30,579 nt of DNA from a virus (IMGVR_UViG_3300004941_000003:1-30579), one strand, 5' to 3'. Positions 6,820 through 30,579 are shown, numbered from the stretch's first letter. A program made the numbers and translations. The notes: a model not told the origin generated them from the letters alone.

Positions 6820-6843
6820 TAACTAAATTACTAACTTATAAAG

Positions 6844-6869
6844 GGGTGGGTTAACGCCCGCCCTTTTTT
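6844..6869 (+). terminator. Rho-independent terminator after the capsid gene
   Basis: Stem GGGTGGG (6844-6850) pairs with CCCGCCC (6857-6863) with one G-U pair. A 6-nt loop is followed by T6 (6864-6869). Confidence 0.8.
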
Positions 6870-7449: not shown

Positions 7450-7476
7450 TTTTTCATAGTTTAATTGTTTATTAAG

Positions 7477-7503
7477 GGGCAGCTTTCGGGTTGCCCTTTT
7501 TTT
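7477..7503 (+). terminator. Rho-independent terminator after the tail tube gene
   Basis: Stem GGGCAGC (7477-7483) pairs with GGTTGCCC (7490-7496). A 6-nt loop is followed by T7 (7497-7503). Confidence 0.8.
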
Positions 7504-10988: not shown

Positions 10989-11825
10989 ATGTACACTTAC
11001 GGTAATATGTATATAATTAACAGTTTTAGGTTTGGAGGAGGAGCAGCACCGAGCGACCCTGACTTTACAATGTTGGTAAAGACTGACAACGCGGGTACAA
11101 GTGCAAGCGACCAGTTTACTATACCAACAGGTGGAACAGGATATAATTACGACGTTGACTGGGGGGACGGCACAACTTCAACAGGAGTAACAGGAAGCAC
11201 TACTCACACTTTTCCAAGTGCGGGTAATTATGTAGTTAAGATTAGCGGGGCGTTTCCGCGTATTTTCTTTAACAATGGAGGCGATAAACTTAAATTGTTA
11301 GAGGTACAGAATTGGGGTAATATTGCATGGACAAGTATGGATTCTGCTTTTGAAGGATGTTCTAATATGGATGTAACAGCAACAGATGTACCGGACTTGT
11401 CAAGTGTTACAAATATGACTTTTATGTTTTTTGTTGCTTCATCATTAGTAGGTAATTCAAGCTTTGAAAATTGGGACGTTTCAAATGTCACTAATATGAG
11501 CTATATGTTTAATGGTGCTTCATCATTTAACCAAAATTTGAGCGCATGGCAATTAAATAATGGGCTTACTACTGGGTTTCGTATGTTTAGAAGTAGCGGA
11601 ATGAGTACAGCTAACTATACAGATACAATAGTAGGATGGGCTAATTACACAACTACAAACGGAGCGCCTTACAACGTCAGTATGTCAACTCAAACAGGAA
11701 TGATTTATGACACCTCAAGAAGTGGAGGTGCTAACTTTGCAGATGCTGGAGCAGCACGAACATACCTAACAACAGCAACACCAACAGGAGCGGGTTGGAC
11801 AATATCAGGAGATACAGTAATATAA
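10989..11825 (+). CDS. Tail fibre/adhesin-like protein with DUF285/BspA-like repeats
   Basis: Repeated units MDSAFEGCSNMD..., VTNMTFMFFVASSL...FENWDVSNVTNMSYMFNGASSFNQNLSAWQL... match the DUF285 (BspA-like) repeat pattern F.ga..Fn.dis.WdvS.Vt.M..MF. The N-terminal part (YDVDWGDGTTSTGVTGSTTHTFPSAGNYVVKISG) is PKD/Ig-like. Confidence 0.65.
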   Translation: MYTYGNMYIINSFRFGGGAAPSDPDFTMLVKTDNAGTSASDQFTIPTGGTGYNYDVDWGDGTTSTGVTGSTTHTFPSAGNYVVKISGAFPRIFFNNGGDKLKLLEVQNWGNIAWTSMDSAFEGCSNMDVTATDVPDLSSVTNMTFMFFVASSLVGNSSFENWDVSNVTNMSYMFNGASSFNQNLSAWQLNNGLTTGFRMFRSSGMSTANYTDTIVGWANYTTTNGAPYNVSMSTQTGMIYDTSRSGGANFADAGAARTYLTTATPTGAGWTISGDTVI

Positions 11826-14538: not shown

Positions 14539-14568
14539 CGTAGTTTTATTCAGTTAGTTTTCAAGCAG

Positions 14569-14608
14569 TTACAAATTAATTACAAAAAACTTTGTAAATA
14601 ATTGCAAA
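14569..14608. promoter_or_regulatory. Operator-like repeat cluster upstream of the early promoter
   Basis: TTACAAA at 14569-14575 and 14580-14586, its inverted partner TTTGTAA at 14591-14597 (palindrome TTACAAA-aaac-TTTGTAA), and the related TTGCAAA at 14602-14608. Confidence 0.35.
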
Positions 14609-14613
14609 AAAAC

Positions 14614-14644
14614 TTGCACGAACTAAACTTGTGTATTATATTTG
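14614..14644 (+). promoter_or_regulatory. Host-type (Bacteroidetes sigma-A) early promoter
   Basis: AAAAAACTTGC with TTG at 14614-16, a 20-nt spacer, then TATATTTG (14637-14644), which matches the TAnnTTTG -7 consensus. It sits in the largest intergenic gap at the head of the small-gene block. It has nearly the same architecture as the promoter at 22268-22297. Confidence 0.65.
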
Positions 14645-14671
14645 TCTCATAACAATTAAAAACAAATAAAC

Positions 14672-14836
14672 ATGAAAAATTTAGAAAGGGTAAACGAAAG
14701 AGTAAACCAATTAGTAAATAGATTAGGTTTGAAAGAAGCTAAAGAGGTAGCAGTTGAAATGTGCCAATGCAACTTTCCTTTTGAAGAGAAGTATTTTTGG
14801 GGTTGTGTATTAAAGCAATTAAACGAGCAAAAATAA
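14672..14836 (+). CDS. Small early hypothetical protein (54 aa, MKNLERVNERVNQLVNRLGLKEAKEVAVEMCQCNFPFEEKYFWGCVLKQLNEQK)
   Basis: It is below the ORF-track cut-off. It is the first ATG after the early promoter and has the same A-rich leader as the next gene. Confidence 0.5.
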   Translation: MKNLERVNERVNQLVNRLGLKEAKEVAVEMCQCNFPFEEKYFWGCVLKQLNEQK

Positions 14837-14858
14837 TAACAACTAAAAACAAATAAGC

Positions 14859-15089
14859 ATGAAAGAAGAACAATTAGAGCTAGACGGTTTAATCGTAACC
14901 TTTGAATACGATAAGAGATTTGCAGAACCAGAAGTAGGATATATGATAGACTACTGGTTTTGGGAGGTAATAAGTGTAGAAGTAGCAAGTGATGTACTTT
15001 ACGATGCTTATGATATTTTAGATAGGCTAAGCGTTAAAGACTTAGGTAGAATAGACGACGAAATCGAGGAATATTTAAACAACAAATAA
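14859..15089 (+). CDS. Early hypothetical protein (76 aa, acidic)
   Basis: ATG start preceded by a near-duplicate of the 14649-14677 leader. Confidence 0.55.
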   Translation: MKEEQLELDGLIVTFEYDKRFAEPEVGYMIDYWFWEVISVEVASDVLYDAYDILDRLSVKDLGRIDDEIEEYLNNK

Positions 15090-15256
15090 TGTTATACAAA
15101 CTAAAAACAGAAACAAAGACTATCTACCGTAACAGTGCGGTAGAAGTCGCAAAGGTCTGCGGATGTTCGGCAGCCACTATCTACACTAGACTAGGTAGAA
15201 AAGGACAAAAGAGCGATATTATTAACGGAGTAGAAATAACAATAGTAGAAATATGA
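15089..15256 (+). CDS. Small helix-turn-helix DNA-binding protein candidate (55 aa)
   Basis: It is below the ORF-track cut-off. The start overlaps the upstream stop as TAATG and the stop overlaps ATG 15253 as ATGA. Translation is MLYKLKTETKTIYRNSAVEVAKVCGCSAATIYTRLGRKGQKSDIINGVEITIVEI, and SAVEVAKVCGCSAATIYTRL looks like a classic HTH. Confidence 0.5.
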   Translation: MLYKLKTETKTIYRNSAVEVAKVCGCSAATIYTRLGRKGQKSDIINGVEITIVEI

Positions 15257-15501
15257 AACCATTTATTCAAACAAGCATAGCAGCAGCAGTATTTATTATT
15301 ATAGCAGTATTATTTATTGCACTGCACAAAATAGAAAACTACAAAGAACAAGTAGAAGAGCAGAAAGAAACTATCTACGAGCTAAAGGAGGAACTACATA
15401 CCTACGAAGTGATGTACTTAAAATGCGCGGGTAACATTGAAGGCGATAATTACGAAGTGCAATACTTAGAAAATAAACTTAAATTTTGTAAAACTAAATA
15501 A
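15253..15501 (+). CDS. Small membrane protein (N-terminal TM helix plus coiled coil)
   Basis: The hydrophobic segment SIAAAVFIIIAVLFIALH is followed by an E/K-rich helix. Confidence 0.5.
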   Translation: MKPFIQTSIAAAVFIIIAVLFIALHKIENYKEQVEEQKETIYELKEELHTYEVMYLKCAGNIEGDNYEVQYLENKLKFCKTK

Positions 15502-15503
15502 TC

Positions 15504-15800
15504 ATGAAAGTAAGAACAAACGACGGAAAAGAGGGAACTATAGTAGAAAGAAAAACTAATCAAGTTCTAGTAAAGTTTAACAATGGTACGGTAAAAGGAT
15601 ACCGACCTGAGCAAGTGCAAGAGATAGGAAAGCCAGCTAACAGCTTAAAGCCTCCTAGCCGAGAGCGTGACTTGTTAATACGAACGATTGAAACGATTGA
15701 AGGAATGAAAAAGATAGCGAAAGAATCAAAAACAGAATTTGCGCGAGGTGCTGATATGGCTTATAGTTTAGTGTTAGAAATGTTAAATGATTTGAAATGA
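15504..15800 (+). CDS. Early hypothetical protein (98 aa)
   Basis: ORF with an ATG start. Its stop overlaps the next start. Confidence 0.5.
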   Translation: MKVRTNDGKEGTIVERKTNQVLVKFNNGTVKGYRPEQVQEIGKPANSLKPPSRERDLLIRTIETIEGMKKIAKESKTEFARGADMAYSLVLEMLNDLK

Positions 15801-16234
15801 TGAAAGCAAACGAATTTAGAATAGGTAATTTAGTGATTAATAACGATATAATTTATAAGGTTGTATCTATTGATGAGGAAGGTATAATGGCAGACCCAGT
15901 TAGTCAAAAACACACTATTGATGTGAATATACGTGGTTTAGTTAAACCCATCCCCCTCACAGAAGAATGGTTGTTTCGGTTTGGGTTTGTTAGTGATAAT
16001 TATGAGTTTCAAGAAACTTATTATATTGACATAAGCACAAATGAGCGATATGATTACCAAACATTTATTCAAGCTATTGACATGGGCGGTTATGTAAATA
16101 TCTATATTAAAGAATTGGAGCGAGAACATGAAAAATATTTTAGTAACGCATTTATCAAAAGAGTTACACACATCCACACTTTACAAAACCTTTACTTTGC
16201 CCTAACAGGTGAGGATTTAATACTAGAGAAATGA
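15797..16234 (+). CDS. Early hypothetical protein (145 aa) in a low-GC patch
   Basis: ATGA overlaps on both sides. Spot GC counts of 28-33% per 60 nt compare with about 38-45% in neighbouring genes. Confidence 0.5.
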   Translation: MMKANEFRIGNLVINNDIIYKVVSIDEEGIMADPVSQKHTIDVNIRGLVKPIPLTEEWLFRFGFVSDNYEFQETYYIDISTNERYDYQTFIQAIDMGGYVNIYIKELEREHEKYFSNAFIKRVTHIHTLQNLYFALTGEDLILEK

Positions 16235-16521
16235 TAAAATACGAAAACTCAATTAAGCGCAAGATTAAAGAAATCTACGAGCGCAATCAAGAAGTAACAG
16301 GAAAGGAACTCAGCAAAATATTGAAATGCGATTTGAACTGGGCTAGAATGTGCCTATCTAATCTAAAGTACGAGGATGGAAAAGCTGAGTATAAGCCTTA
16401 CATAGTTCCTCCCCCGCCTAGTAGAGAAGACCGCCACCACGATAGTAACAGGTGGCACGACATAGAGGAGGACATAAAAGAAGTAGATGTAGACGAACTA
16501 TATAAACAAGCAATGATATGA
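16231..16521 (+). CDS. Early hypothetical protein (96 aa)
   Basis: ORF with overlapping start and stop codons. Confidence 0.5.
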   Translation: MIKYENSIKRKIKEIYERNQEVTGKELSKILKCDLNWARMCLSNLKYEDGKAEYKPYIVPPPPSREDRHHDSNRWHDIEEDIKEVDVDELYKQAMI

Positions 16522-16736
16522 AAATAACACTAGAATTTAAAGACGAAGACGCAGAGGAAGCGTTAACAGCCTTAGACGGCTACAAGTGGAAGTTAGCACT
16601 TTGGGACCTAGACCAGTATATGAGGTCGGAAATAAAGTACAATCCTGACTTAACAGAGCAAGCATACATAGCTTTACAAGAATGTAGAGATAAAATAACA
16701 ATACTATTGCAAGAATATAACTTAAAACTAGACTGA
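16518..16736 (+). CDS. Early hypothetical protein (72 aa, acidic)
   Basis: ORF with overlapping start and stop codons. Confidence 0.5.
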   Translation: MKITLEFKDEDAEEALTALDGYKWKLALWDLDQYMRSEIKYNPDLTEQAYIALQECRDKITILLQEYNLKLD

Positions 16737-16960
16737 TGACAAAAGAAGAGAAAATAATAAACGTAGCGGGCTTAGTGTACACACTTCGAGATTTACTAGA
16801 AGAGGTCGACTGGAACAGGGAACTCAAACAAAGAACAAAGAACTACGCAGCATACCTCGATAGGTTAGTAAGAGAGATAGCAGCTGATAGAGATGTATGG
16901 CAAGAGTTAGACGAATTACAAGAGCATTTTTATAATAATTTTGTGCGGGAAACGAAATAA
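16736..16960 (+). CDS. Early hypothetical protein (74 aa)
   Basis: ORF whose start overlaps the upstream stop. Confidence 0.5.
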   Translation: MTKEEKIINVAGLVYTLRDLLEEVDWNRELKQRTKNYAAYLDRLVREIAADRDVWQELDELQEHFYNNFVRETK

Positions 16961-16973
16961 ATAGTTATATTTG
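16940..16973 (+). promoter_or_regulatory. Host-type promoter in front of the ParB/PAPS-reductase-like cassette
   Basis: TTTG at 16940-16943, a 22-nt spacer, and TATATTTG at 16966-16973 immediately after the stop codon at 16958-16960. Confidence 0.5.
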
Positions 16974-16978
16974 CACAA

Positions 16979-17072
16979 GTTGCGGGTTCAAAAATAGGCA
17001 ACTAAAGGAATTAATAAAAGCCTTGTAATGAAAGCGCATGAACCCCGCTGGATTTACAGGGCTTATTTTTTT
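16979..17072 (+). promoter_or_regulatory. Structured leader with a terminator-like hairpin (attenuator, riboswitch-like element or small RNA candidate)
   Basis: Small hairpin GTTGC (16979-83) / GCAAC (16998-17002). An 11-bp stem AAGCCTTGTAA (17018-28) / TTACAGGGCTT (17054-64) is followed by T7 (17066-72). A competing long-range pairing joins GCGGGTTCA (16982-90) to TGAACCCCGC (17039-48). Confidence 0.4.
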
Positions 17073-17090
17073 ACCAAATAAATTAAAATT

Positions 17091-18227
17091 ATGAATGATT
17101 TAATTAAAGAGTCCTTTTTGAAGGATATTGAAAAAATGGATTTATGTAGTAAGGTAGATTACATAAATGAATTGAGGTTGTTTATACACAAAAACTCACC
17201 GTTTAAAAATGAGCCAGTCGATTATGTCAAATGGGTTGTGAATGAAAACGTAGTTTCTAACGACTATAATCCAAATAAGGTTGCTCCACCAGAAATGGAA
17301 TTGCTTGAGGTTTCTATTTTAAACGATGGATATACGCAGCCTATAGTTTCATGGTCTAATCCAGATAAAGATGGAAAGACTGAGGTTATTGACGGTTTCC
17401 ATAGGAGCAGAGTAGGTAAGGAATCAGTTGTTGTAAAAGACAGAGTAATGGGCTTTCTTCCAGTTGTTGATATTAGAACGGAGCAGTCCAGTAAAAATGA
17501 CCGTATAGCGTCTACAATTAGACACAACCGTGCGAGAGGTAAGCACCAAGTTGATGCAATGAGTGAAATAGTTATTGAATTAAAGAACCGTAATTGGTCA
17601 AACAAACGTATTGCAAAACAGTTAGGTATGGATGAAGAAGAAATACTTCGCCTTTGTCAAATTTCAGGATTAGAACATTTGTTTAATGACCGAGATTTTA
17701 GCAAAGCATGGGTAAGCGAAGAATCAAACGAATCGTTTATTCCAGTACACGATAAACTTCTTCCTATTGAAATAGAACAGTATAGAGCAGGAAACACGAA
17801 TGACCCAAATAGAATATTTCATACATATGATAAATGGGAATGCTATAAAGCAGGTTTTTACGAATCAAAGCATCCAAAGAAAACTCATGAGGCTTCAATA
17901 AGAATATTTAAAGAAATAATATCTAATCAAGAATCGTTTAGAAATGCTTTAAATATTGTGATAACAGAGTGGAAATACAGTTGTGAACATTATTTAACGA
18001 ATAACAGCATGAACAGAATAGCGTGGTTAGGTCAAGCTGCTGTATGTGCTAAAAGCGGTGTTCCTTCTAGGTATTCTAGTGCGTGGTTTGAGATTGACGA
18101 AGAAACTAGAAATAAAGCTAATCAAACGGCATTAGAGTTTTTAAATAAGTGGTTAGTCGCAAACAATAGAGAGGAAGTTAATATGCCGTCAGCATTGAAT
18201 ACAGGTAGACAAGTTGAACTTTATTAA
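17091..18227 (+). CDS. ParB/sulfiredoxin-fold (IbrB-like) protein with an extra C-terminal domain of unknown function
   Basis: Motifs TEVIDGFHRSRVG and TIRHNRARGKHQV, followed by an HTH-like NWSNKRIAKQLGMDEEEILRL, match ParB-like nuclease-domain (IbrB-type) proteins. About 180 further residues (YDKWECYKAGFY ... WKYSCEHYLTNNSMNRIAWLGQAAVCAKSGVP) are unassigned. Confidence 0.7.
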   Translation: MNDLIKESFLKDIEKMDLCSKVDYINELRLFIHKNSPFKNEPVDYVKWVVNENVVSNDYNPNKVAPPEMELLEVSILNDGYTQPIVSWSNPDKDGKTEVIDGFHRSRVGKESVVVKDRVMGFLPVVDIRTEQSSKNDRIASTIRHNRARGKHQVDAMSEIVIELKNRNWSNKRIAKQLGMDEEEILRLCQISGLEHLFNDRDFSKAWVSEESNESFIPVHDKLLPIEIEQYRAGNTNDPNRIFHTYDKWECYKAGFYESKHPKKTHEASIRIFKEIISNQESFRNALNIVITEWKYSCEHYLTNNSMNRIAWLGQAAVCAKSGVPSRYSSAWFEIDEETRNKANQTALEFLNKWLVANNREEVNMPSALNTGRQVELY

Positions 18228-18237
18228 TTACATAGTT

Positions 18238-19449
18238 ATGTCAAGAAAAAGAGAAATAGATATTTCGGTGTTAGAAGCAGCAAAGCAAAGAATATCTAAG
18301 ACGTTTGATGATTTTGAAAGAACGTATATTAGTTTTTCAGGTGGTAAAGATTCTACGGTAATGACGCACTTAGTTTTAGATGAAGCTAAAAAGCGTGGTG
18401 TTAAAGTAGGTTTATTAATTATTGACCTAGAAGCGCAGTACGAAGCTACTATTTCACATATTGAAGAAATGATAGAAACATATAAAGACCATATTGATTT
18501 ACATTGGTTTTGCGGTGAACTACTGCTTAGGAATGCTGTTAGTGATTTTGAACCTAAATGGGTTTGTTGGGACGAAGACAAAAAAGACCAATGGGTAAGG
18601 GAAAAACCTAAATTAGCTTCCGATTTAAGTCAATACGATTTCTATGTTCCTAAAATGGAGTTCGAAGAATTGATGGTTATATTTGGAGAGTGGTATTCAC
18701 AAGGTAAATTAACCGCTGCATTTATTGGTATTCGTTCAGATGAAAGTTTACACCGTTATAGAGCTATAACATCAAATAAAGATGGTTTAATGCATAAAGA
18801 CTATAAATGGACTACTAAAGTTTCAAGTGAATTATTTAACGTGTATCCGATTTACGACTGGAGAACGGAAGATATTTGGATATTTCACATGAAGTCAAAA
18901 CTACCTTATAACAAGATATATGACCTTATGACTAGGGGCGGTGTTAAGTTTAGCGAACAAAGACTTTGCCAGCCTTATGGAGATGACCAAAAGAAAGGTT
19001 TATGGCTTTACCATATTTTAGAGCCTCAAACATGGTATAAATTAATTAACAGGGTAAGCGGTGTTAATTCAGGTGCTTTGTACGTCAAGGAAAGAGGAAG
19101 TATAAATGGCAATACATCTATTGATAAACCCGATGGTTATACATGGGAGCAATACACAAACTTTTTGTTAAAATCGCTACCTAAAAAAACACAAGAAAAC
19201 TATCGAGATAGGTTTGAAAAGTTTATAGCTGGATGGCTTCAAAGGGGTTATAAATCAATACCTGATGAAGCACCTCATTCACTAGAAGTTAAGTGTTGGG
19301 CGCCATCATGGAAGCGAATGGCTCGTTGTATATTAAGAAATGACTACTATTGTAAAGGTTTAGGACAAACACAACCAAAGTCAGAGGCGTACGAAAAGTG
19401 GAAGTCAATAAAATACAAAAGAAAATTAGCTGAAAATTTGAATAAATAG
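18238..19449 (+). CDS. PP-loop ATPase of the PAPS-reductase family (IbrA/DndC-like) with a DUF3440-like C-terminal region
   Basis: PP-loop ISFSGGKDSTV, IGIRSDES and YPIYDWRTEDIWIF are PAPS-reductase-family motifs. The C-terminal WAPSWKRMARCILRNDYYCKGLG resembles the IbrA-type extension. No ECG(L/I)H catalytic tail of true CysH is present. ATG 18238 is preferred over the TTG at 18214 given in the track. Confidence 0.75.
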   Translation: MSRKREIDISVLEAAKQRISKTFDDFERTYISFSGGKDSTVMTHLVLDEAKKRGVKVGLLIIDLEAQYEATISHIEEMIETYKDHIDLHWFCGELLLRNAVSDFEPKWVCWDEDKKDQWVREKPKLASDLSQYDFYVPKMEFEELMVIFGEWYSQGKLTAAFIGIRSDESLHRYRAITSNKDGLMHKDYKWTTKVSSELFNVYPIYDWRTEDIWIFHMKSKLPYNKIYDLMTRGGVKFSEQRLCQPYGDDQKKGLWLYHILEPQTWYKLINRVSGVNSGALYVKERGSINGNTSIDKPDGYTWEQYTNFLLKSLPKKTQENYRDRFEKFIAGWLQRGYKSIPDEAPHSLEVKCWAPSWKRMARCILRNDYYCKGLGQTQPKSEAYEKWKSIKYKRKLAENLNK

Positions 19450-19457
19450 TATATTTG
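19450..19457 (+). promoter_or_regulatory. Host-type -7 promoter box (TATATTTG) for the replication module
   Basis: TATATTTG lies directly after the stop at 19447-49. The surrounding 35 nt are a near copy of 16958-17000. Confidence 0.45.
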
Positions 19458-19484
19458 TAGCGGGGTTTTATAGGCATATAAGTA

Positions 19485-19520
19485 AAAGGTTGTTCGTGTT
19501 TACCTTTCCCCTTTCTTTTT
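19485..19520 (+). terminator. Weak hairpin plus T-rich tract
   Basis: AAAGGT (19485-90) / ACCTTT (19502-07), 11-nt loop, then ccccTTTcTTTTT. The stem is AT-rich, so it is at best a weak terminator. Confidence 0.3.
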
Positions 19521-19544
19521 AAAAACACGATTAAAAAAAACACT

Positions 19545-20126
19545 ATGGCAACAGGCAAAAAATCATTTATCGCATACTGCGACTGGCTCGAAACATTTGA
19601 GGAGCTAGACGATGCAGAAGCGGGTAGATTAGTAAAACATCTATTTAGATACGTTAACGACTTAGACCCGCAGACCGAGGATAAACTAACGAAAATGACG
19701 TTTATACCTATCAAACAAACACTAAAGCGCGACCTTAAAAAACATGAAGCGGTAGCTGAAAGAAACCGAGAAAACGGAGCAAAGGGAGGTAGACCCAAAA
19801 AACCCACTGGGTTATCTGGGTTAAATGAAAAACCCAAAAAAGCCGATAGTGATAATGATAGTGATAATGTAAATGATAATAAAGATATATATATGTCTTT
19901 TAAGCATTTGAAAATAACAAAAGCAGAATGTATAGAGCTAAACAAGAATTACACAAAAGAGCAAATAGATACAATACTAGAAGCTATACAAAACTATAAA
20001 GGCAATACTAAATATGTTTCCTTATATTTGACGGCTAAGAACTGGCTTAAGAAAGAACACGGAGAAAACGGACGTGCAAAAGTAGACCCGTTAGTAGAAC
20101 ACGTTAAAAAAGCTACGAATACATGA
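19545..20126 (+). CDS. Replication initiator / replisome-organiser-like protein
   Basis: The N-terminus FIAYCDWLETFEELDDAEAGRLVKHLFRYVND resembles N-terminal domains of phage replisome organiser proteins. A basic linker follows (GAKGGRPKKPTG). It is the first gene of the replication module and has internal repeats. Confidence 0.4.
   Translation: MATGKKSFIAYCDWLETFEELDDAEAGRLVKHLFRYVNDLDPQTEDKLTKMTFIPIKQTLKRDLKKHEAVAERNRENGAKGGRPKKPTGLSGLNEKPKKADSDNDSDNVNDNKDIYMSFKHLKITKAECIELNKNYTKEQIDTILEAIQNYKGNTKYVSLYLTAKNWLKKEHGENGRAKVDPLVEHVKKATNT
19845..19880 (+). repeat. 12-nt tandem repeat (gatagtgataat x2 plus degenerate gtaaatgataat) encoding DSDNDSDNVNDN
   Basis: Read directly: 19845-19856 is identical to 19857-19868, and 19869-19880 is diverged. 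Confidence 0.85.
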
Positions 20127-21109
20127 TACTCAACAACGGACACAGCACAAAGTTTCTGACGGACTACCGCGACGGTAAGATACCTAAAGGCTTAAAACTA
20201 GGCTGCGCTTTAGATGAGAGCTTTGTATACAAGCATAACCAGTTAAACATCTTTCTAGGGCATGACAACGTAGGTAAGACGTATTTTCAACTTTGGTACT
20301 TTCTAGCTCTAGCAACTAACCACGACTTAAGCTTTTGTTTATTCTGCGATGAGAACAGCGCGGGTAAGATTATGCGCGACCTAGTACAGATGTACTGCAA
20401 TAAGCCCTTTATGGATTTAACGCACAAAGAAATAAGAAGAGCGGAAATAAAGCTAGAGAATCACTTTTCGTTTATTGACAATACTAAACGATACGAGCCG
20501 CGGGAGGTAATAGACTTATACTTAAACTCAGGTAGAGATACGCTACTAATAGACCCGTGGAACTCACTTAAGACGGATTTAACCTATTCTAGTAACTACG
20601 ATGTATTGAATGAGCTAAAGATGGTAACTAAAGAGGGAAAACACTCGGTATTCATAAACGCGCACCCTACAAGCGCAAGCGGTAGACTGGGAGCTGTTTA
20701 CCCTAAAGACCACCAATGGCAAGGGCAAGTAAGAATACCTTTTAAGTCGGATATTGAAGGAGGTAAAGCTTTTGCGAATAAAGCGGATGACTTCGTAGTT
20801 ATTCACCGATTAACTTCGCACGCTGAGTTATGGAAGTTTACTATGATTGAAGTAGCAAAGATTAAAGACACGGACACAGGAGGAAAGCCTACTTTTCAAG
20901 ACCAGCCTATTATGTTAGATTATAACTATGGTTTAGGGTTAACTGTTAACGGGGTAGATGTTATTAAACGCCCTCAAGCATTTCAGCAGAAAATTATACC
21001 TAACGAGCCAAAGGAGGACTTAAACAAATTTAAAAATATTAACTTTGATATTGAGAACGGGATAGATGAAGACCCGCACGAGATATGGAACACAATTAAA
21101 ACGCCATGA
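20123..21109 (+). CDS. P-loop ATPase, DnaB/RepA-like replicative helicase candidate
   Basis: Walker A GHDNVGKT and Walker B-like TLLIDPWN, with RecA-like spacing. It follows the initiator-like gene with an ATGA overlap. Confidence 0.5.
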   Translation: MILNNGHSTKFLTDYRDGKIPKGLKLGCALDESFVYKHNQLNIFLGHDNVGKTYFQLWYFLALATNHDLSFCLFCDENSAGKIMRDLVQMYCNKPFMDLTHKEIRRAEIKLENHFSFIDNTKRYEPREVIDLYLNSGRDTLLIDPWNSLKTDLTYSSNYDVLNELKMVTKEGKHSVFINAHPTSASGRLGAVYPKDHQWQGQVRIPFKSDIEGGKAFANKADDFVVIHRLTSHAELWKFTMIEVAKIKDTDTGGKPTFQDQPIMLDYNYGLGLTVNGVDVIKRPQAFQQKIIPNEPKEDLNKFKNINFDIENGIDEDPHEIWNTIKTP

Positions 21110-21399
21110 GTTACGCAATAGATGTAGTATTAAGCAAAGGTGCTATAAGACTAGCAGCTGAGCAGTTAAAAGCAATTAACGCTAAGGTAAAGGAGAAACA
21201 ACCTAGCCATGAATGGATAGAGACTAACGAGAAATGCATTGAGCAGCTTACTGAGTTATATTATTTTCTCCTATCTGTAGACAAGCAGTTAACTGAGACA
21301 AACAGGGAAAACTTTAACCAGTACAAGCTGTTACTTGAAAAGCAGAGAGAGATAGACGACCTAAAGAAACAATTAAACGAAATGAAAGAGTTATTATGA
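21106..21399 (+). CDS. Hypothetical coiled-coil protein (97 aa)
   Basis: ORF with overlapping start and stop codons. Confidence 0.5.
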   Translation: MSYAIDVVLSKGAIRLAAEQLKAINAKVKEKQPSHEWIETNEKCIEQLTELYYFLLSVDKQLTETNRENFNQYKLLLEKQREIDDLKKQLNEMKELL

Positions 21400-21758
21400 A
21401 TTTCTGCTCAGATTTTAGACACGATTTAGAAGTAGGACAAATAGGCGAAAAGCTTTTAAATGATATTCTTAACTTTAAAACTATTGAAGTCAAAAGAGAT
21501 AGCTGGATACATAAAAGCGGAAATATAGCTATTGAGTTTGAAAGTAGAGGTAAACCCTCAGGAATAGCAAAAAGCACAGCTGACTGGTGGGCAATTATTT
21601 TTAGTGGAGAATATAAAGACAAATTTATTTTAATGATTGAAGCTAACAAATTAAAAGAGATAGCTAGAATATATTACAAAAAAGGAAATATTAAAGAAAT
21701 GGGAGATAATAATACTAGTAAATCAGTATTAATACCCTTAAAAGAATTATTTATATGA
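21396..21758 (+). CDS. Hypothetical protein, possible PD-(D/E)XK nuclease fold, in a low-GC patch
   Basis: IEVKRD ... GNIAIEFES ... SGIAKSTADWW is tentatively nuclease-like. A spot GC count gives about 27% per 60 nt. Confidence 0.3.
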   Translation: MNFCSDFRHDLEVGQIGEKLLNDILNFKTIEVKRDSWIHKSGNIAIEFESRGKPSGIAKSTADWWAIIFSGEYKDKFILMIEANKLKEIARIYYKKGNIKEMGDNNTSKSVLIPLKELFI

Positions 21759-22288
21759 GAGCTAAAAAGTGCAAAGTATGTAAAGAGAAGTTTGAGCCGT
21801 TACGCCCTTTACAGGTTGTTTGCTCTACCAAGTGCGGCTACGAATACACGAAACAACAAAAGGAGAAGCAATGGAAGGAGAGAAAAAAGGAACTCAAAGA
21901 AAAGCTACTTACCCGCTCCGACTACTTAAAACTAGCACAGGCTGCTTTCAATGCTTACATACGTGAAAGAGATAAAGATAGAAGCTGTATAAGCTGCGGA
22001 ACGTATAATGGCAAAATGAACGCGGGACACTACATGAGCGTAGGAAGCACTCCCGAGCTTCGCTTTAACGAAGACAACGTGCATAAACAGTGTGAACGCT
22101 GTAATACTTTCTACTCAGGTAACTTAATTAACTACCGTATAGAATTAATAAACAGAATAGGAGAAGAGCGCGTAAATTTGTTAGAGCGCAAAGACCTTGA
22201 GCCGCTAAAGATGACTATTGACGAAATCAAGGAACTAACAAAAAAGTATAAAAAACTATTAAAAAACTTGCGTAACAATTCTAAATAA
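21755..22288 (+). CDS. ninG: NinG/Rap-like recombination endonuclease
   Basis: N-terminal CKVCKEKF...VVCSTKCG and central CISCG...NAGHYMSVGSTPELRFNEDNVHKQCERCN...SGN match the lambda NinG family pattern. Confidence 0.75.
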   Translation: MRAKKCKVCKEKFEPLRPLQVVCSTKCGYEYTKQQKEKQWKERKKELKEKLLTRSDYLKLAQAAFNAYIRERDKDRSCISCGTYNGKMNAGHYMSVGSTPELRFNEDNVHKQCERCNTFYSGNLINYRIELINRIGEERVNLLERKDLEPLKMTIDEIKELTKKYKKLLKNLRNNSK

Positions 22289-24005: not shown

Positions 24006-24048
24006 TGTTATCTTTGTCGTGTTTCATGGTTTAGTTTTAATGTTTAGG

Positions 24049-24075
24049 GGGAAGTTTAACGACTTCCCTTTTTTT
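24049..24075 (+). terminator. Rho-independent terminator closing the early/middle region
   Basis: Stem GGGAAGT (24049-55) / ACTTCCC (24062-68), 6-nt loop, then T7 (24069-75). Confidence 0.8.
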
Positions 24076-29725: not shown

Positions 29726-30579
29726 TGCGGACGGTACAGATATACATAAACGATGAGATACTAGACTTATTCGATGATGAGAATATAGAAGTAAGTTCGA
29801 GTATTCAAAACATTAACGACATTGCGAAAGTATTTACCGACTTCTCGCAGCAGTTTACTGTACCCGCTTCTCCGCGTAACAATGAGATATTTAAACACTA
29901 CTATCAGAATGACGTAGAGGACGGCTTTATAGCCAAGGAGAGACAGCCAGCGAGGATAGAAATAAACTACACGCCTTTTAGAAGAGGTAAGATACAGCTA
30001 GAGGGTGCTGAGTTAGTAGAGGGTGAAGCACAACATTACAGTATAACTTTCTATGGTGATGTTGTTACGCTTAAAGACCTTTTCGGAGATGACAAGCTAA
30101 GAGACTTAGACTATAGCAGTTTGAGTTTTGAGTATAACTATGCGAATGTAAAGAATAGTATTGTTTCGACTGCTGAGGAGGATATACGTTTTCCGCTTAT
30201 TTCTAGCGAGCGAGTTTGGGAGTACGGAGACCTTTCGAGTAACGATATAGAAACAAGTGCGGGGGCTATCAATTACACCGAGCTACAGCCAGCGGTTAGA
30301 GTGCCTAAAATTATCGAAGCAATAGAGGACACCTACGGCGTTACCTTTACAGGGAACTTCCTAACAAACGACAGATTCAAGAAACTTTATACATGGTGGA
30401 AAAATGCGGACGCTCCTACTTTTAACGTAACGGCTTTACCTTTAGCTTTTAACCCTAGTAACACTACTTGCATAACTGAGTTTAACGGACAGAACGCAGG
30501 TATATTTACAAACGAGGTAAGGGTGAACTATGTAAACTTAAACCTTATTACGCCTAACCCTCCTAACTTTATTAACTGG
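29725..30579 (+). CDS. Large tail-tip/baseplate-like structural protein, N-terminal part. It runs off the window end and continues at base 84 through the circular overlap.
   Basis: ATG 29725 is followed by 285 codons with no stop up to the window end. Translation starts MRTVQIYINDEILDLFDDENIEVSSSIQNINDIAKVFTDFSQQFTVPASPRNNEIF, an N-terminus resembling tail proteins of Bacteroidota siphoviruses. Confidence 0.6.
   Translation, partial: MRTVQIYINDEILDLFDDENIEVSSSIQNINDIAKVFTDFSQQFTVPASPRNNEIFKHYYQNDVEDGFIAKERQPARIEINYTPFRRGKIQLEGAELVEGEAQHYSITFYGDVVTLKDLFGDDKLRDLDYSSLSFEYNYANVKNSIVSTAEEDIRFPLISSERVWEYGDLSSNDIETSAGAINYTELQPAVRVPKIIEAIEDTYGVTFTGNFLTNDRFKKLYTWWKNADAPTFNVTALPLAFNPSNTTCITEFNGQNAGIFTNEVRVNYVNLNLITPNPPNFINW
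30497..30579. repeat. Terminal overlap copy 2 (identical to 1-83)
   Basis: Read directly from the sequence. Confidence 0.95.

Follow-up and report, generated by a model that had tools for sequence, protein, structure and literature searches.

What does a phage do with a gene pair that joins a ParB-like protein to a PAPS-reductase-like enzyme? The question is raised by IMGVR_UViG_3300004941_000003, a viral DNA of 30,579 nucleotides that was analysed over its whole length (the window), and in which a two-gene cassette, consisting of an IbrB-type gene for the ParB-like protein (17091-18227) and an IbrA-type gene for the enzyme (18238-19449), lies on the plus strand. An original prediction, made from this DNA alone, had seen in the cassette a horizontally acquired module of DNA modification or anti-restriction. 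The cassette is here found to be a variant of a known, biochemically uncharacterised pair, with an extra fused domain. We put at about even the chances that it forms a self-contained, horizontally exchanged IbrB/IbrA-type DNA-directed modification module, which replaces a DNA methyltransferase and works against host restriction. The domain families, the near-obligate pairing of the two genes, their mobility and their positional equivalence with methyltransferase cassettes were all computed here.

Both open reading frames (ORFs) are present with the boundaries that had been predicted, and so are all the motifs that had been quoted, namely DGFHRSRVG, IRHNRARGKH, YDKWECYKAGFY and WKYSCEHYLTN..NRIAWLGQAAVC in the ParB-like protein and SGGKDST, IGIRSDES, YPIYDWRTEDIW and WAPSWKRMARCILRNDYYCKGLG in the enzyme. 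The parts of the cassette are as follows.

17091-17720, plus strand: ParB-N and helix-turn-helix (HTH) core, IbrB-type, residues 1-210 of a 378-aa product
17799-18227, plus strand: all-helical C-terminal domain as predicted by AlphaFold2, residues 237-378 (~140 residues)
18238-19449, plus strand: IbrA-type enzyme of 403 aa, with PAPS_reduct and DUF3440, the IbrA architecture
~18325-18924, plus strand: PP-loop/PAPS_reduct domain, residues 30-229, with SGGKDST at residues 34-40
~18940 to ~19416, plus strand: DUF3440 (Pfam PF11922), residues 235 to ~393

An exchangeable slot shared with DNA methyltransferases

The relatives available for comparison are 22 viral contigs with a 74-98% identical version of the 328-aa replication protein encoded next to the slot. 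Flanking DNA is ~86-92% identical between the window and its closest relatives up to ~17093-17109, and identity resumes at 19544 (L008), at ~19845 (L006 and L009) or at 20090 (L014). Between these limits, the relatives carry different genes.

L003, L004, L005 and L012: the same IbrAB cassette
L007, L009, L010, L013 and L027: a DEAD/SNF2-type helicase, an N6_N4 methyltransferase and a MazG-like protein
L006, L008, L025 and L039: a ParB-like N-terminus fused to an N6_N4 methyltransferase, and a small ORF
L014-L016: a 272-aa protein with a DGQHR ParB-type motif, with a C5 methyltransferase also nearby
L100: a 160-aa ORF
L022, L024 and L230: an empty slot, with a DUF6291-like replication gene straight after the leader

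Because the contents of the relatives differ there, the slot is a cassette-exchange hot spot, holding mainly DNA modifiers, and the IbrAB pair is one interchangeable option at it. The DNA-modification reading gains independent support from this, since near-identical backbones carry methyltransferases or nothing at the same position; the proposal of the original prediction is thereby strengthened in its positional aspect, the anti-restriction role itself being one that we infer. Such a natural series of cassettes on one backbone is a direct argument for placing the IbrAB pair among DNA modifiers, and also offers a ready experimental design for seeking both the modification and the host defences that it evades. 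Among the alternative cassettes, the 172-, 160- and 286-aa ORFs gave no Pfam match. The 286-aa protein, encoded at ~1510-2370 (oriented) downstream of the leader in L230, a distant relative whose slot is empty, has a PP-loop-like SLSGGKTSS motif and belongs to the replication module there.

The IbrA-type enzyme

The ATG at 18238 is taken as the correct start, because homologues begin with MSKKKELD. Two Pfam domains account for the product, PF01507 PAPS_reduct (E 3e-18, 66.9 bits vs a cut-off of 22.5) and PF11922 DUF3440 (E 2.2e-34, 119.3 bits vs 25), the only other being a weak ATP_bind_3; both domains occur in all 120 IbrA homologues among the matches listed. PHROG 2302 matches at 3.5e-88, and a profile search with IbrA matched structures of FAD synthase, CysD and CysH. 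Curated models for CysH, CysD, DndC and APS reductase all scored far under their cut-offs, including 24.6-34.5 bits vs cut-offs of 154-254 for the CysH models NF002537, TIGR02057 and TIGR00434, and 25.7 bits vs 290.4, over residues 163-226 only, for the DndC equivalog TIGR03183. PADLOC gave weak partial matches to DndC and BrxP that cover ~65 residues of the PP-loop domain, the BrxP match having an E of 1.3e-6 over 70 residues. The catalytic C-terminal ECG(L/I)H motif of CysH is absent from the translation. The earlier description of the enzyme as PP-loop and PAPS-reductase-like, and distinct from CysH, is thus borne out by its two above-threshold domains and its missing motif.

The last ~60 residues of IbrA (the ..IPDEAP...WKRMA.C.L.ND..CK.LG tail, within DUF3440) exist elsewhere as a separate small ORF or segment, directly after a stand-alone version of the helical domain described below: at 786-1055 of L020, at 5925-6089 of L267 (Mycobacterium phage Gaia) and at 4350-4511 of L270 (phage XCL1123). 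This arrangement hints that the IbrA tail and the helical domain may work together.

The ParB-like partner and its helical domain

The core of the ParB-like protein, which bears DGFHRSRVG at residues 101-109 and IRHNRARGKH at residues 143-152, is matched over residues 29-220 by PHROG 2159, 'ParB-like partition protein', at 5e-66, and the matches to PHROG 2159, 26387 and 1033 ('ParB-like') range from 5e-66 to 3.5e-7; PHROG 498, of the ParB-methyltransferase type, also matches the core (4e-7). A ParB-N fold followed by an HTH DNA-binding domain is seen in the predicted structure. Foldseek placed the AlphaFold2 model beside KorB (8qa9), ParB (6t1f) and Noc (7ol9, 7nfu) at a probability of 1.0, with E-values of 2-5e-3, a target TM of ~0.4 and an underlying model of pLDDT 71. 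In a search of 1.84 billion representatives, 2337 homologous clusters were recovered, most of them of ~210 aa and consisting of the core only, and DGFHRSRVG is invariant in an alignment of 41 homologues. When an alignment of the ParB-like protein was compared by hhalign with a ParB-methyltransferase fusion and with a DGQHR-type protein, the motif alone aligned, and not significantly (E 0.07 and 0.011, respectively). In one homologue, P0242 (637 aa), the invariant ParB-domain motif DG(Y)/TQP is split exactly at the slash by an insertion of ~260 aa; it begins with Cys, ends with HN then Thr, contains LAGFLDGEG and so resembles a LAGLIDADG intein in these sequence hallmarks, and Pfam gave it no match. 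The exact placement of this intein-like insertion suggests that the motif is functionally critical.

The C-terminal part of the ParB-like protein, for which the original prediction recognised no family, does form a confidently modelled all-helical domain (pLDDT 92.2, pTM 0.87), and hidden Markov model, PHROG and fold searches likewise gave it no family. Neither Pfam nor PHROG matched it, the best fold match among solved structures in the PDB had an E of 1.6, and one unnamed viral model matched its fold at 3e-3. Invariant positions of the domain include W13, E14, S61, C62, E63, N68, N72, R73 and W76, and a ..GRQxELY tail, likewise conserved, closes the protein. The domain also exists as stand-alone proteins of ~145 aa (P0341, P0346 and P0366), and is a separate ORF beside IbrA/IbrB in phages Mwe-JY13, XCL1123 and Amjad_SA, as well as in locus L020. 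In phage Gaia, a 132-aa ORF matches it weakly and only in part, with 28% identity over 81 residues and an E of 4e-6. Among 80 genomic IbrA loci, the domain is present in seven, always in the order ParB, helical domain, IbrA. Being fused, stand-alone or absent, it is therefore an optional third component, and together with the structured leader RNA that heads the slot it makes two previously unannotated elements defined here.

Coupling and mobility of the pair

The 80 IbrA loci examined come from species-representative genomes of bacteria and archaea, spread over many phyla; in genomes of this kind, the pair was found at 404 loci at least. A ParB core lies within 3 kb of IbrA and on the same strand in 78 of the 80, and in the other two the contig breaks off at the gene or close to it. 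In the window, the two co-oriented genes are separated by 10 nt, and the pair is also adjacent in phages of Streptococcus, Mycobacterium, Flavobacterium, Pseudoalteromonas, Pseudomonas and 'Microcystis'. Pairs of the IbrA/IbrB type are very common, with at least 8000 candidates scored in both homology searches in addition to the genomic loci. In 16 of the 80 genomic loci (L272-L351), as well as in Streptococcus phage CHPC1148 and Flavobacterium phage FCL-2, the gene immediately upstream of IbrA encodes an SNF2 helicase, and such neighbours provide a DNA-translocase context for IbrA. The three-gene SNF2-IbrA-IbrB arrangement can be seen, for example, at L002 2764-4002 and L269 1240-2451; the alternative cassette of the sister phages likewise begins with a DEAD/SNF2-type helicase.

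Phages that otherwise have unrelated genes carry cassette proteins 69-85% identical to those of the window, at loci with a guanine-plus-cytosine (GC) content of 0.29 to 0.485, and this degree of identity amid unrelated genes argues for horizontal spread under strong purifying selection. The view of the cassette as a horizontally acquired two-gene module therefore holds.

Several variations on the pair were encountered. In phage Gaia, IbrB (gp104, L267 4308-5207) is a fusion of an ectoine-synthase-like cupin (Pfam 1.3e-32) to ParB_N. In many genomic loci, the ParB core begins 430-740 nt after IbrA, which suggests N-terminal extensions of IbrB or an intervening gene. An ORF of 171-176 aa overlaps the 3' end of IbrA in three loci with other phage backbones, L028 (7214-7744), L030 (7211-7741) and L032 (7206-7721); that of L032 has a PDDEXK_1 match at 1.1e-5 and those of L028 and L030 have no Pfam match. 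It may encode a further partner, one that is absent from the window.

Comparison with known systems

The closest known counterparts are E. coli IbrA/IbrB and the pairs annotated in Flavobacterium phages FCL-2 and 6H and in Streptococcus Moineauvirus, in which the same two families are adjacent and co-oriented, with a ParB-like protein of ~200 aa. The window's proteins are 33-40% (IbrA) and 43-50% (ParB core) identical to the phage examples. They differ from typical IbrA/IbrB in that IbrB precedes IbrA and is fused to the helical domain, an order and a domain shared with the seven genomic loci, and, unlike FCL-2 and CHPC1148, the window has no SNF2 helicase upstream.

Phosphorothioate DNA is made by DndC, SspD and BrxP, which have a PAPS-reductase domain and need a P-loop NTPase partner (PMC12914056). 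The window resembles DndB/DndC, SspD and BrxP in combining a ParB/Srx protein that has a DGxHR-type motif with a PAPS-reductase-domain PP-loop enzyme (PMC12914056, PMC12839542). It differs from Dnd in that IbrA has no conserved Fe-S cysteine set and scores 25.7 bits against the 290 of the DndC model, and in that DndB is a dispensable regulator whereas a window-type ParB partner is near-obligate. No DndD/SspC/BrxC NTPase, desulfurase or DUF4007 was found in the cassette, unlike Dnd, Ssp and BREX; type 4 BREX, in which BrxP consists of a PAPS-reductase domain and DUF4007 and is accompanied by BrxC, BrxZ and BrxL, is accordingly a different system.

A phage ParB homologue is a required activator of a DNA thymine dioxygenase acting on double-stranded DNA (PMC13229309), and the insertion of preQ0 by DpdA has been described as driven by DpdB, a ParB-like ATPase (PMC12839542). 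As in 5mYOX176/ParB176 and DpdB/DpdA, where a ParB homologue activates or partners a post-replicative DNA-modifying enzyme (PMC13229309, PMC12839542), the cassette has a ParB-like partner, but the enzymes there are an Fe/2OG dioxygenase or a TGT and here a PP-loop protein; moreover, the 5mYOX-associated ParB has no obvious DNA-binding domain, whereas the window's ParB-like protein has a predicted HTH. The ParB-N6/N4 methyltransferase fusions (the PHROG 498 type of L006, L008, L025 and L039) occupy the identical slot and begin with an IDGHNR-type ParB-like N-terminus. They are S-adenosylmethionine-dependent and form one polypeptide, whereas the window has a separate, predicted ATP-dependent PP-loop enzyme. 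With CysH, finally, the enzyme shares the PAPS_reduct fold and a PP-loop-like SGGKDS motif, but it has the extra DUF3440, no ECGLH, a near-obligate ParB partner and curated scores far under the cut-offs.

A candidate mechanism and its rivals

PP-loop enzymes split ATP into AMP and pyrophosphate, thereby activating an oxygen for substitution. A DNA substrate, a chemistry of this kind and an anti-restriction role are what we infer for IbrAB, and they would fit together as follows. The backbone promoter at 16966 would drive transcription through a structured, terminator-containing leader into both genes. The ParB-like protein would bind DNA by its ParB-N/HTH core, possibly in a nucleotide-gated manner, and would recruit or activate IbrA on replicating phage DNA. 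IbrA, as a PP-loop ATP pyrophosphatase, would adenylate a DNA oxygen of the backbone or a base, and a nucleophile would then displace AMP, leaving a covalent modification. The fused helical domain and DUF3440 could serve as specificity or transfer modules, and the modified phage DNA would evade host restriction. A phosphorothioation-type chemistry is not favoured, because the cassette has no DndD/SspC/BrxC partner or desulfurase, no cysteine triad is kept across diverse IbrA proteins, and neither an SNF2 nor a methyltransferase homologue was found in the window. More speculatively, and as a tentative possibility only, IbrA, the ParB-like protein and the helical domain may together found a new class of modification, in which a PP-loop adenylation mark, neither methylation nor canonical Dnd/Ssp phosphorothioation, is swapped like methyltransferases into a slot under a previously undescribed kissing-loop leader RNA.

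Several observations weigh against a DNA-modifying module. The positional equivalence is circumstantial, as the same slot also holds genes without known function. A comparison of eight diverse IbrA proteins shows no invariant cysteine, broad conservation being limited to C92 and C372, so that an Fe-S triad is not evident, which counts against Dnd-type variants in particular. The assignment of the partner to the ParB family depends on the predicted fold and PHROG, since Pfam ParB_N on the N-terminal half stays under threshold (E 0.0066, 16.9 bits vs a cut-off of 26.3), a Pfam search of the full product at 0.01 gave no match, and PDB sequence searches with the single sequence or a 41-sequence profile returned nothing meaningful; the ParB/IbrB-like call of the original prediction thus stands on the PHROG and Foldseek matches and is weaker on the Pfam side. 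In the two bacterial chromosomes examined, the pair has no common or consistent restriction partner. Biochemistry for any IbrA/IbrB-type pair, and any datum for phage IbrAB, were not found in the searchable literature, in agreement with what had been stated for the pair. The only recorded experimental phenotype, eib gene activation by the name-giving E. coli IbrAB, is regulatory (cited second-hand in PMC4541368).

From that genetic requirement of ibrAB for eib expression, as cited in PMC4541368, comes the family name; the historical annotation, also present in phage records, is 'co-activator of prophage gene expression', which would make the ParB/HTH protein and IbrA a pair that switches on phage or host promoters. 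The predicted HTH of the ParB-like protein would suit such a role. The ~90% identical backbones that lack the pair or have methyltransferases instead show that it is not a required regulator here, the regulatory phenotype could itself stem from DNA modification, and we know of no transcription-factor role for a PP-loop ATP pyrophosphatase; we hold co-activation to be decidedly unlikely. Improbable, too, is a substrate other than DNA, be it tRNA or other RNA, the nucleotide pool or a protein, on which sulfiredoxin-like or PP-loop adenylation chemistry would serve takeover or counter-defence. The PP-loop superfamily does include many tRNA-modifying and small-molecule enzymes, and the IbrA profile matches FAD synthase, CysD and TilS-type proteins; sulfiredoxin, a protein-repair enzyme, has the ParB/Srx fold, and the ectoine-synthase-like cupin on some IbrB proteins suggests small-molecule chemistry. 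Yet the best folds are those of the DNA-clamping proteins ParB, KorB and Noc with an HTH, an SNF2 DNA translocase often adjoins the pair, and the slot is common to DNA methyltransferases, ParB-methyltransferase fusions among them.

The pair might instead mark or damage the DNA of co-infecting phages or of the host, or act as an abortive-infection-type effector. Its neighbours in one Sphingobacterium genome are a serine recombinase, an AbiEii toxin and a type I restriction R subunit; the candidate effectors of NAP-based defence operons given in a 2026 preprint include PAPS-reductase and ParBc proteins (10.64898/2026.04.06.716658), and PADLOC gives weak partial matches to DndC and BrxP. These PADLOC matches are confined to a short part of the PP-loop domain, however, and the cassette encodes neither a nuclease nor any other effector partner. 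Among the window genes examined, an integrase or a lysogeny module was not seen, and the methyltransferases that take the place of the pair at the slot are orphans with no restriction enzyme, as is typical of self-protection. We judge competition or defence very unlikely. Least credible is an auxiliary metabolic gene, a viral CysH that boosts assimilatory sulfate reduction during infection, to which we assign almost no weight. The PAPS-reductase families PHROG 2302 and 424 do fall in the class 'moron, auxiliary metabolic gene', and a survey of auxiliary metabolic genes counts the DUF3440-bearing clade as viral CysH (10.1101/2021.01.05.425418). Against this stand the scores of the curated CysH, PAPS- and APS-reductase models (20-35 bits vs cut-offs of 154-254), the missing catalytic cysteine motif, the ParB partner of 78 of the 80 loci and the interchangeability of the gene with DNA methyltransferases. 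The matter reaches beyond the window, for virome surveys tally IbrA/IbrB-type pairs as 'cysH' sulfur-metabolism genes (10.1101/2021.01.05.425418).

Promoter, leader RNA and right junction

The DNA-modification module would be expressed from backbone elements that precede it, and a second junction follows it.

16940-16973, plus strand: backbone promoter, with the -33 element TTTG at 16940-16943, a 22-nt spacer and the -7 box TATATTTG at 16966-16973
16974-17072, plus strand: structured leader RNA of ~100 nt, belonging to the backbone and not to the cassette
16979-16983/16998-17002, plus strand: leader stem P1, the 5' hairpin
17018-17028/17054-17064, plus strand: leader stem P3, terminator-like, followed by U7 at 17066-17072
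16984-16990 and 17039-17045, plus strand: complementary leader loops, the P1 loop GGGUUCA and the apical loop UGAACCC
19443-19544, plus strand: right junction, with a second TATATTTG box at 19450-19457

The octamer TATATTTG occurs seven times on the plus strand, and because five of the seven (14637, 16966, 19450, 22290 and 24079) sit in the intergenic 6.8% of the genome, it is likely the phage's promoter consensus, as its -7 box. TTTG/TAnnTTTG is a promoter type of Bacteroidota. The five intergenic boxes have a common (A/T)-rich context, with TAAATAnnTATATTTG in three of them. The promoter before the cassette overlaps the stop codon of an upstream 74-aa gene and is kept, together with ~100 nt beyond it, in all relatives compared, whatever gene content comes next.

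The leader RNA heads the replication module, ahead of whichever cassette fills the slot. Its fold has a z-score of -2.67, and RNAalifold predicted 21 pairs, six of them with compensatory changes. By nhmmer, 25 loci with 13 distinct sequences were found; this search recovered true leader copies, whereas two loose DNA patterns applied to viral contigs gave mostly chance matches. Copies are also present in L006, L007, L008, L014, L022, L027, L100, L230 and L257. Complementarity between the cognate loops extends over 7-9 nt in all eight leader variants, which have six different loop sequences, and pairings between variants of differing loops reach 2-6 nt only; the three variants that have the GCUCUCAC loop in common cross-match at 8-9 nt, as expected. 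Judged from these sequences, a loop-loop pairing that covaries is predicted. The leader matched nothing in Rfam at E<=1. An internal loop, UGAA/GGAU, is conserved, and a candidate anti-terminator pairing, AAAGG/CCUUU, seems to covary over 3-5 bp only.

The flanks of the cassette had been described as imperfect direct repeats unique to it and left by an insertion that duplicated a promoter. The string TAAATAGT(T)ATATTTG does have exactly two copies, at 16958 and 19443 (none in 100 shuffles). Local alignment of the two intergenic regions, however, recovers a 15/16-nt box only (score 25, equalled in 17 of 2000 shuffles and in 13 of 1485 genomic windows), alignment beyond the box is at chance (739 of 2000), and the boxes are two of the five intergenic TATATTTG, so that the 'repeat' is mostly the phage's own promoter consensus; its proposed extension past the box and its uniqueness to the cassette both fail. 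The idea that the right intergenic region derives from the whole leader by decay was also considered and is rejected on the same chance-level alignment. As for the duplication, the empty-slot relatives L022 and L024 do have the leader directly before the replication gene and one promoter, and methyltransferase-cassette relatives lack the second box as well; against it, the left promoter and leader are backbone, the right box matches the consensus and the right junction also occurs in L020. An insertion that duplicated the promoter is not supported.

That junction, the fold of which is not significant (z-score 0.31), is found in IbrAB carriers (the window, L012, L004 and L020) and is absent with methyltransferase cassettes, the last gene of which abuts or overlaps DUF6291. 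Homology to L008 restarts exactly at 19544, and the junction probably re-promotes DUF6291 and the replication genes. Over ~100 nt it seems, by eye from the printed sequence, identical in L020, where the ParB-like protein is only 49% identical, the DUF6291 allele is different, and the helical domain and an IbrA-tail-like peptide are separate ORFs; being seemingly identical beside so divergent a cassette, it is best read as a conserved junction or recombination linker between mosaic modules, and not as the duplicate of a target site.

Composition does not mark the cassette as the low-GC element that it had been taken for. Its GC content (0.342) is close to that of the left early block (14539-16960, 0.3435), with 0.369 to the right (19481-22288) and 0.384 for the genome; its genes are the eighth and ninth lowest of 44 genes. 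It is therefore not a distinct low-GC island, and GC does not set it apart from its left neighbours.

Genome setting

The first 83 bases of the window are an exact duplicate of the last (1-83 = 30497-30579), and these identical ends indicate a circularly assembled, complete phage genome of ~30.5 kb; the same genome occurs in ENA as contigs of 30,877 and 30,452 bases. All genes are on the plus strand. The nearest relatives of the large terminase are in Nonlabens phages (55% identity) and then Riemerella phages (47%), from which kinship the host is probably a marine member of the Flavobacteriaceae. A megablast search of the 16-21 kb region against GenBank phages gave no match. Upstream of the cassette, a 145-aa ORF (15797-16234) is missing from the near-identical contigs L003 and L005, in which a 98-aa and a 96-aa gene abut at that place, and it makes a second small indel site of the early region. 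Gene 10989-11825 contains, at 11393-11527, two 54-nt copies, 80% identical and 81 nt apart, that form an internal protein repeat, and its homologue in L003 has Pfam DUF285. Three alike GC-rich hairpins followed by T-runs (GGGG..CCCTTTTTT) lie in the intergenic regions 6836-6869, 7469-7502 and 24041-24074, and are likely the intrinsic terminators of the structural and late operons.

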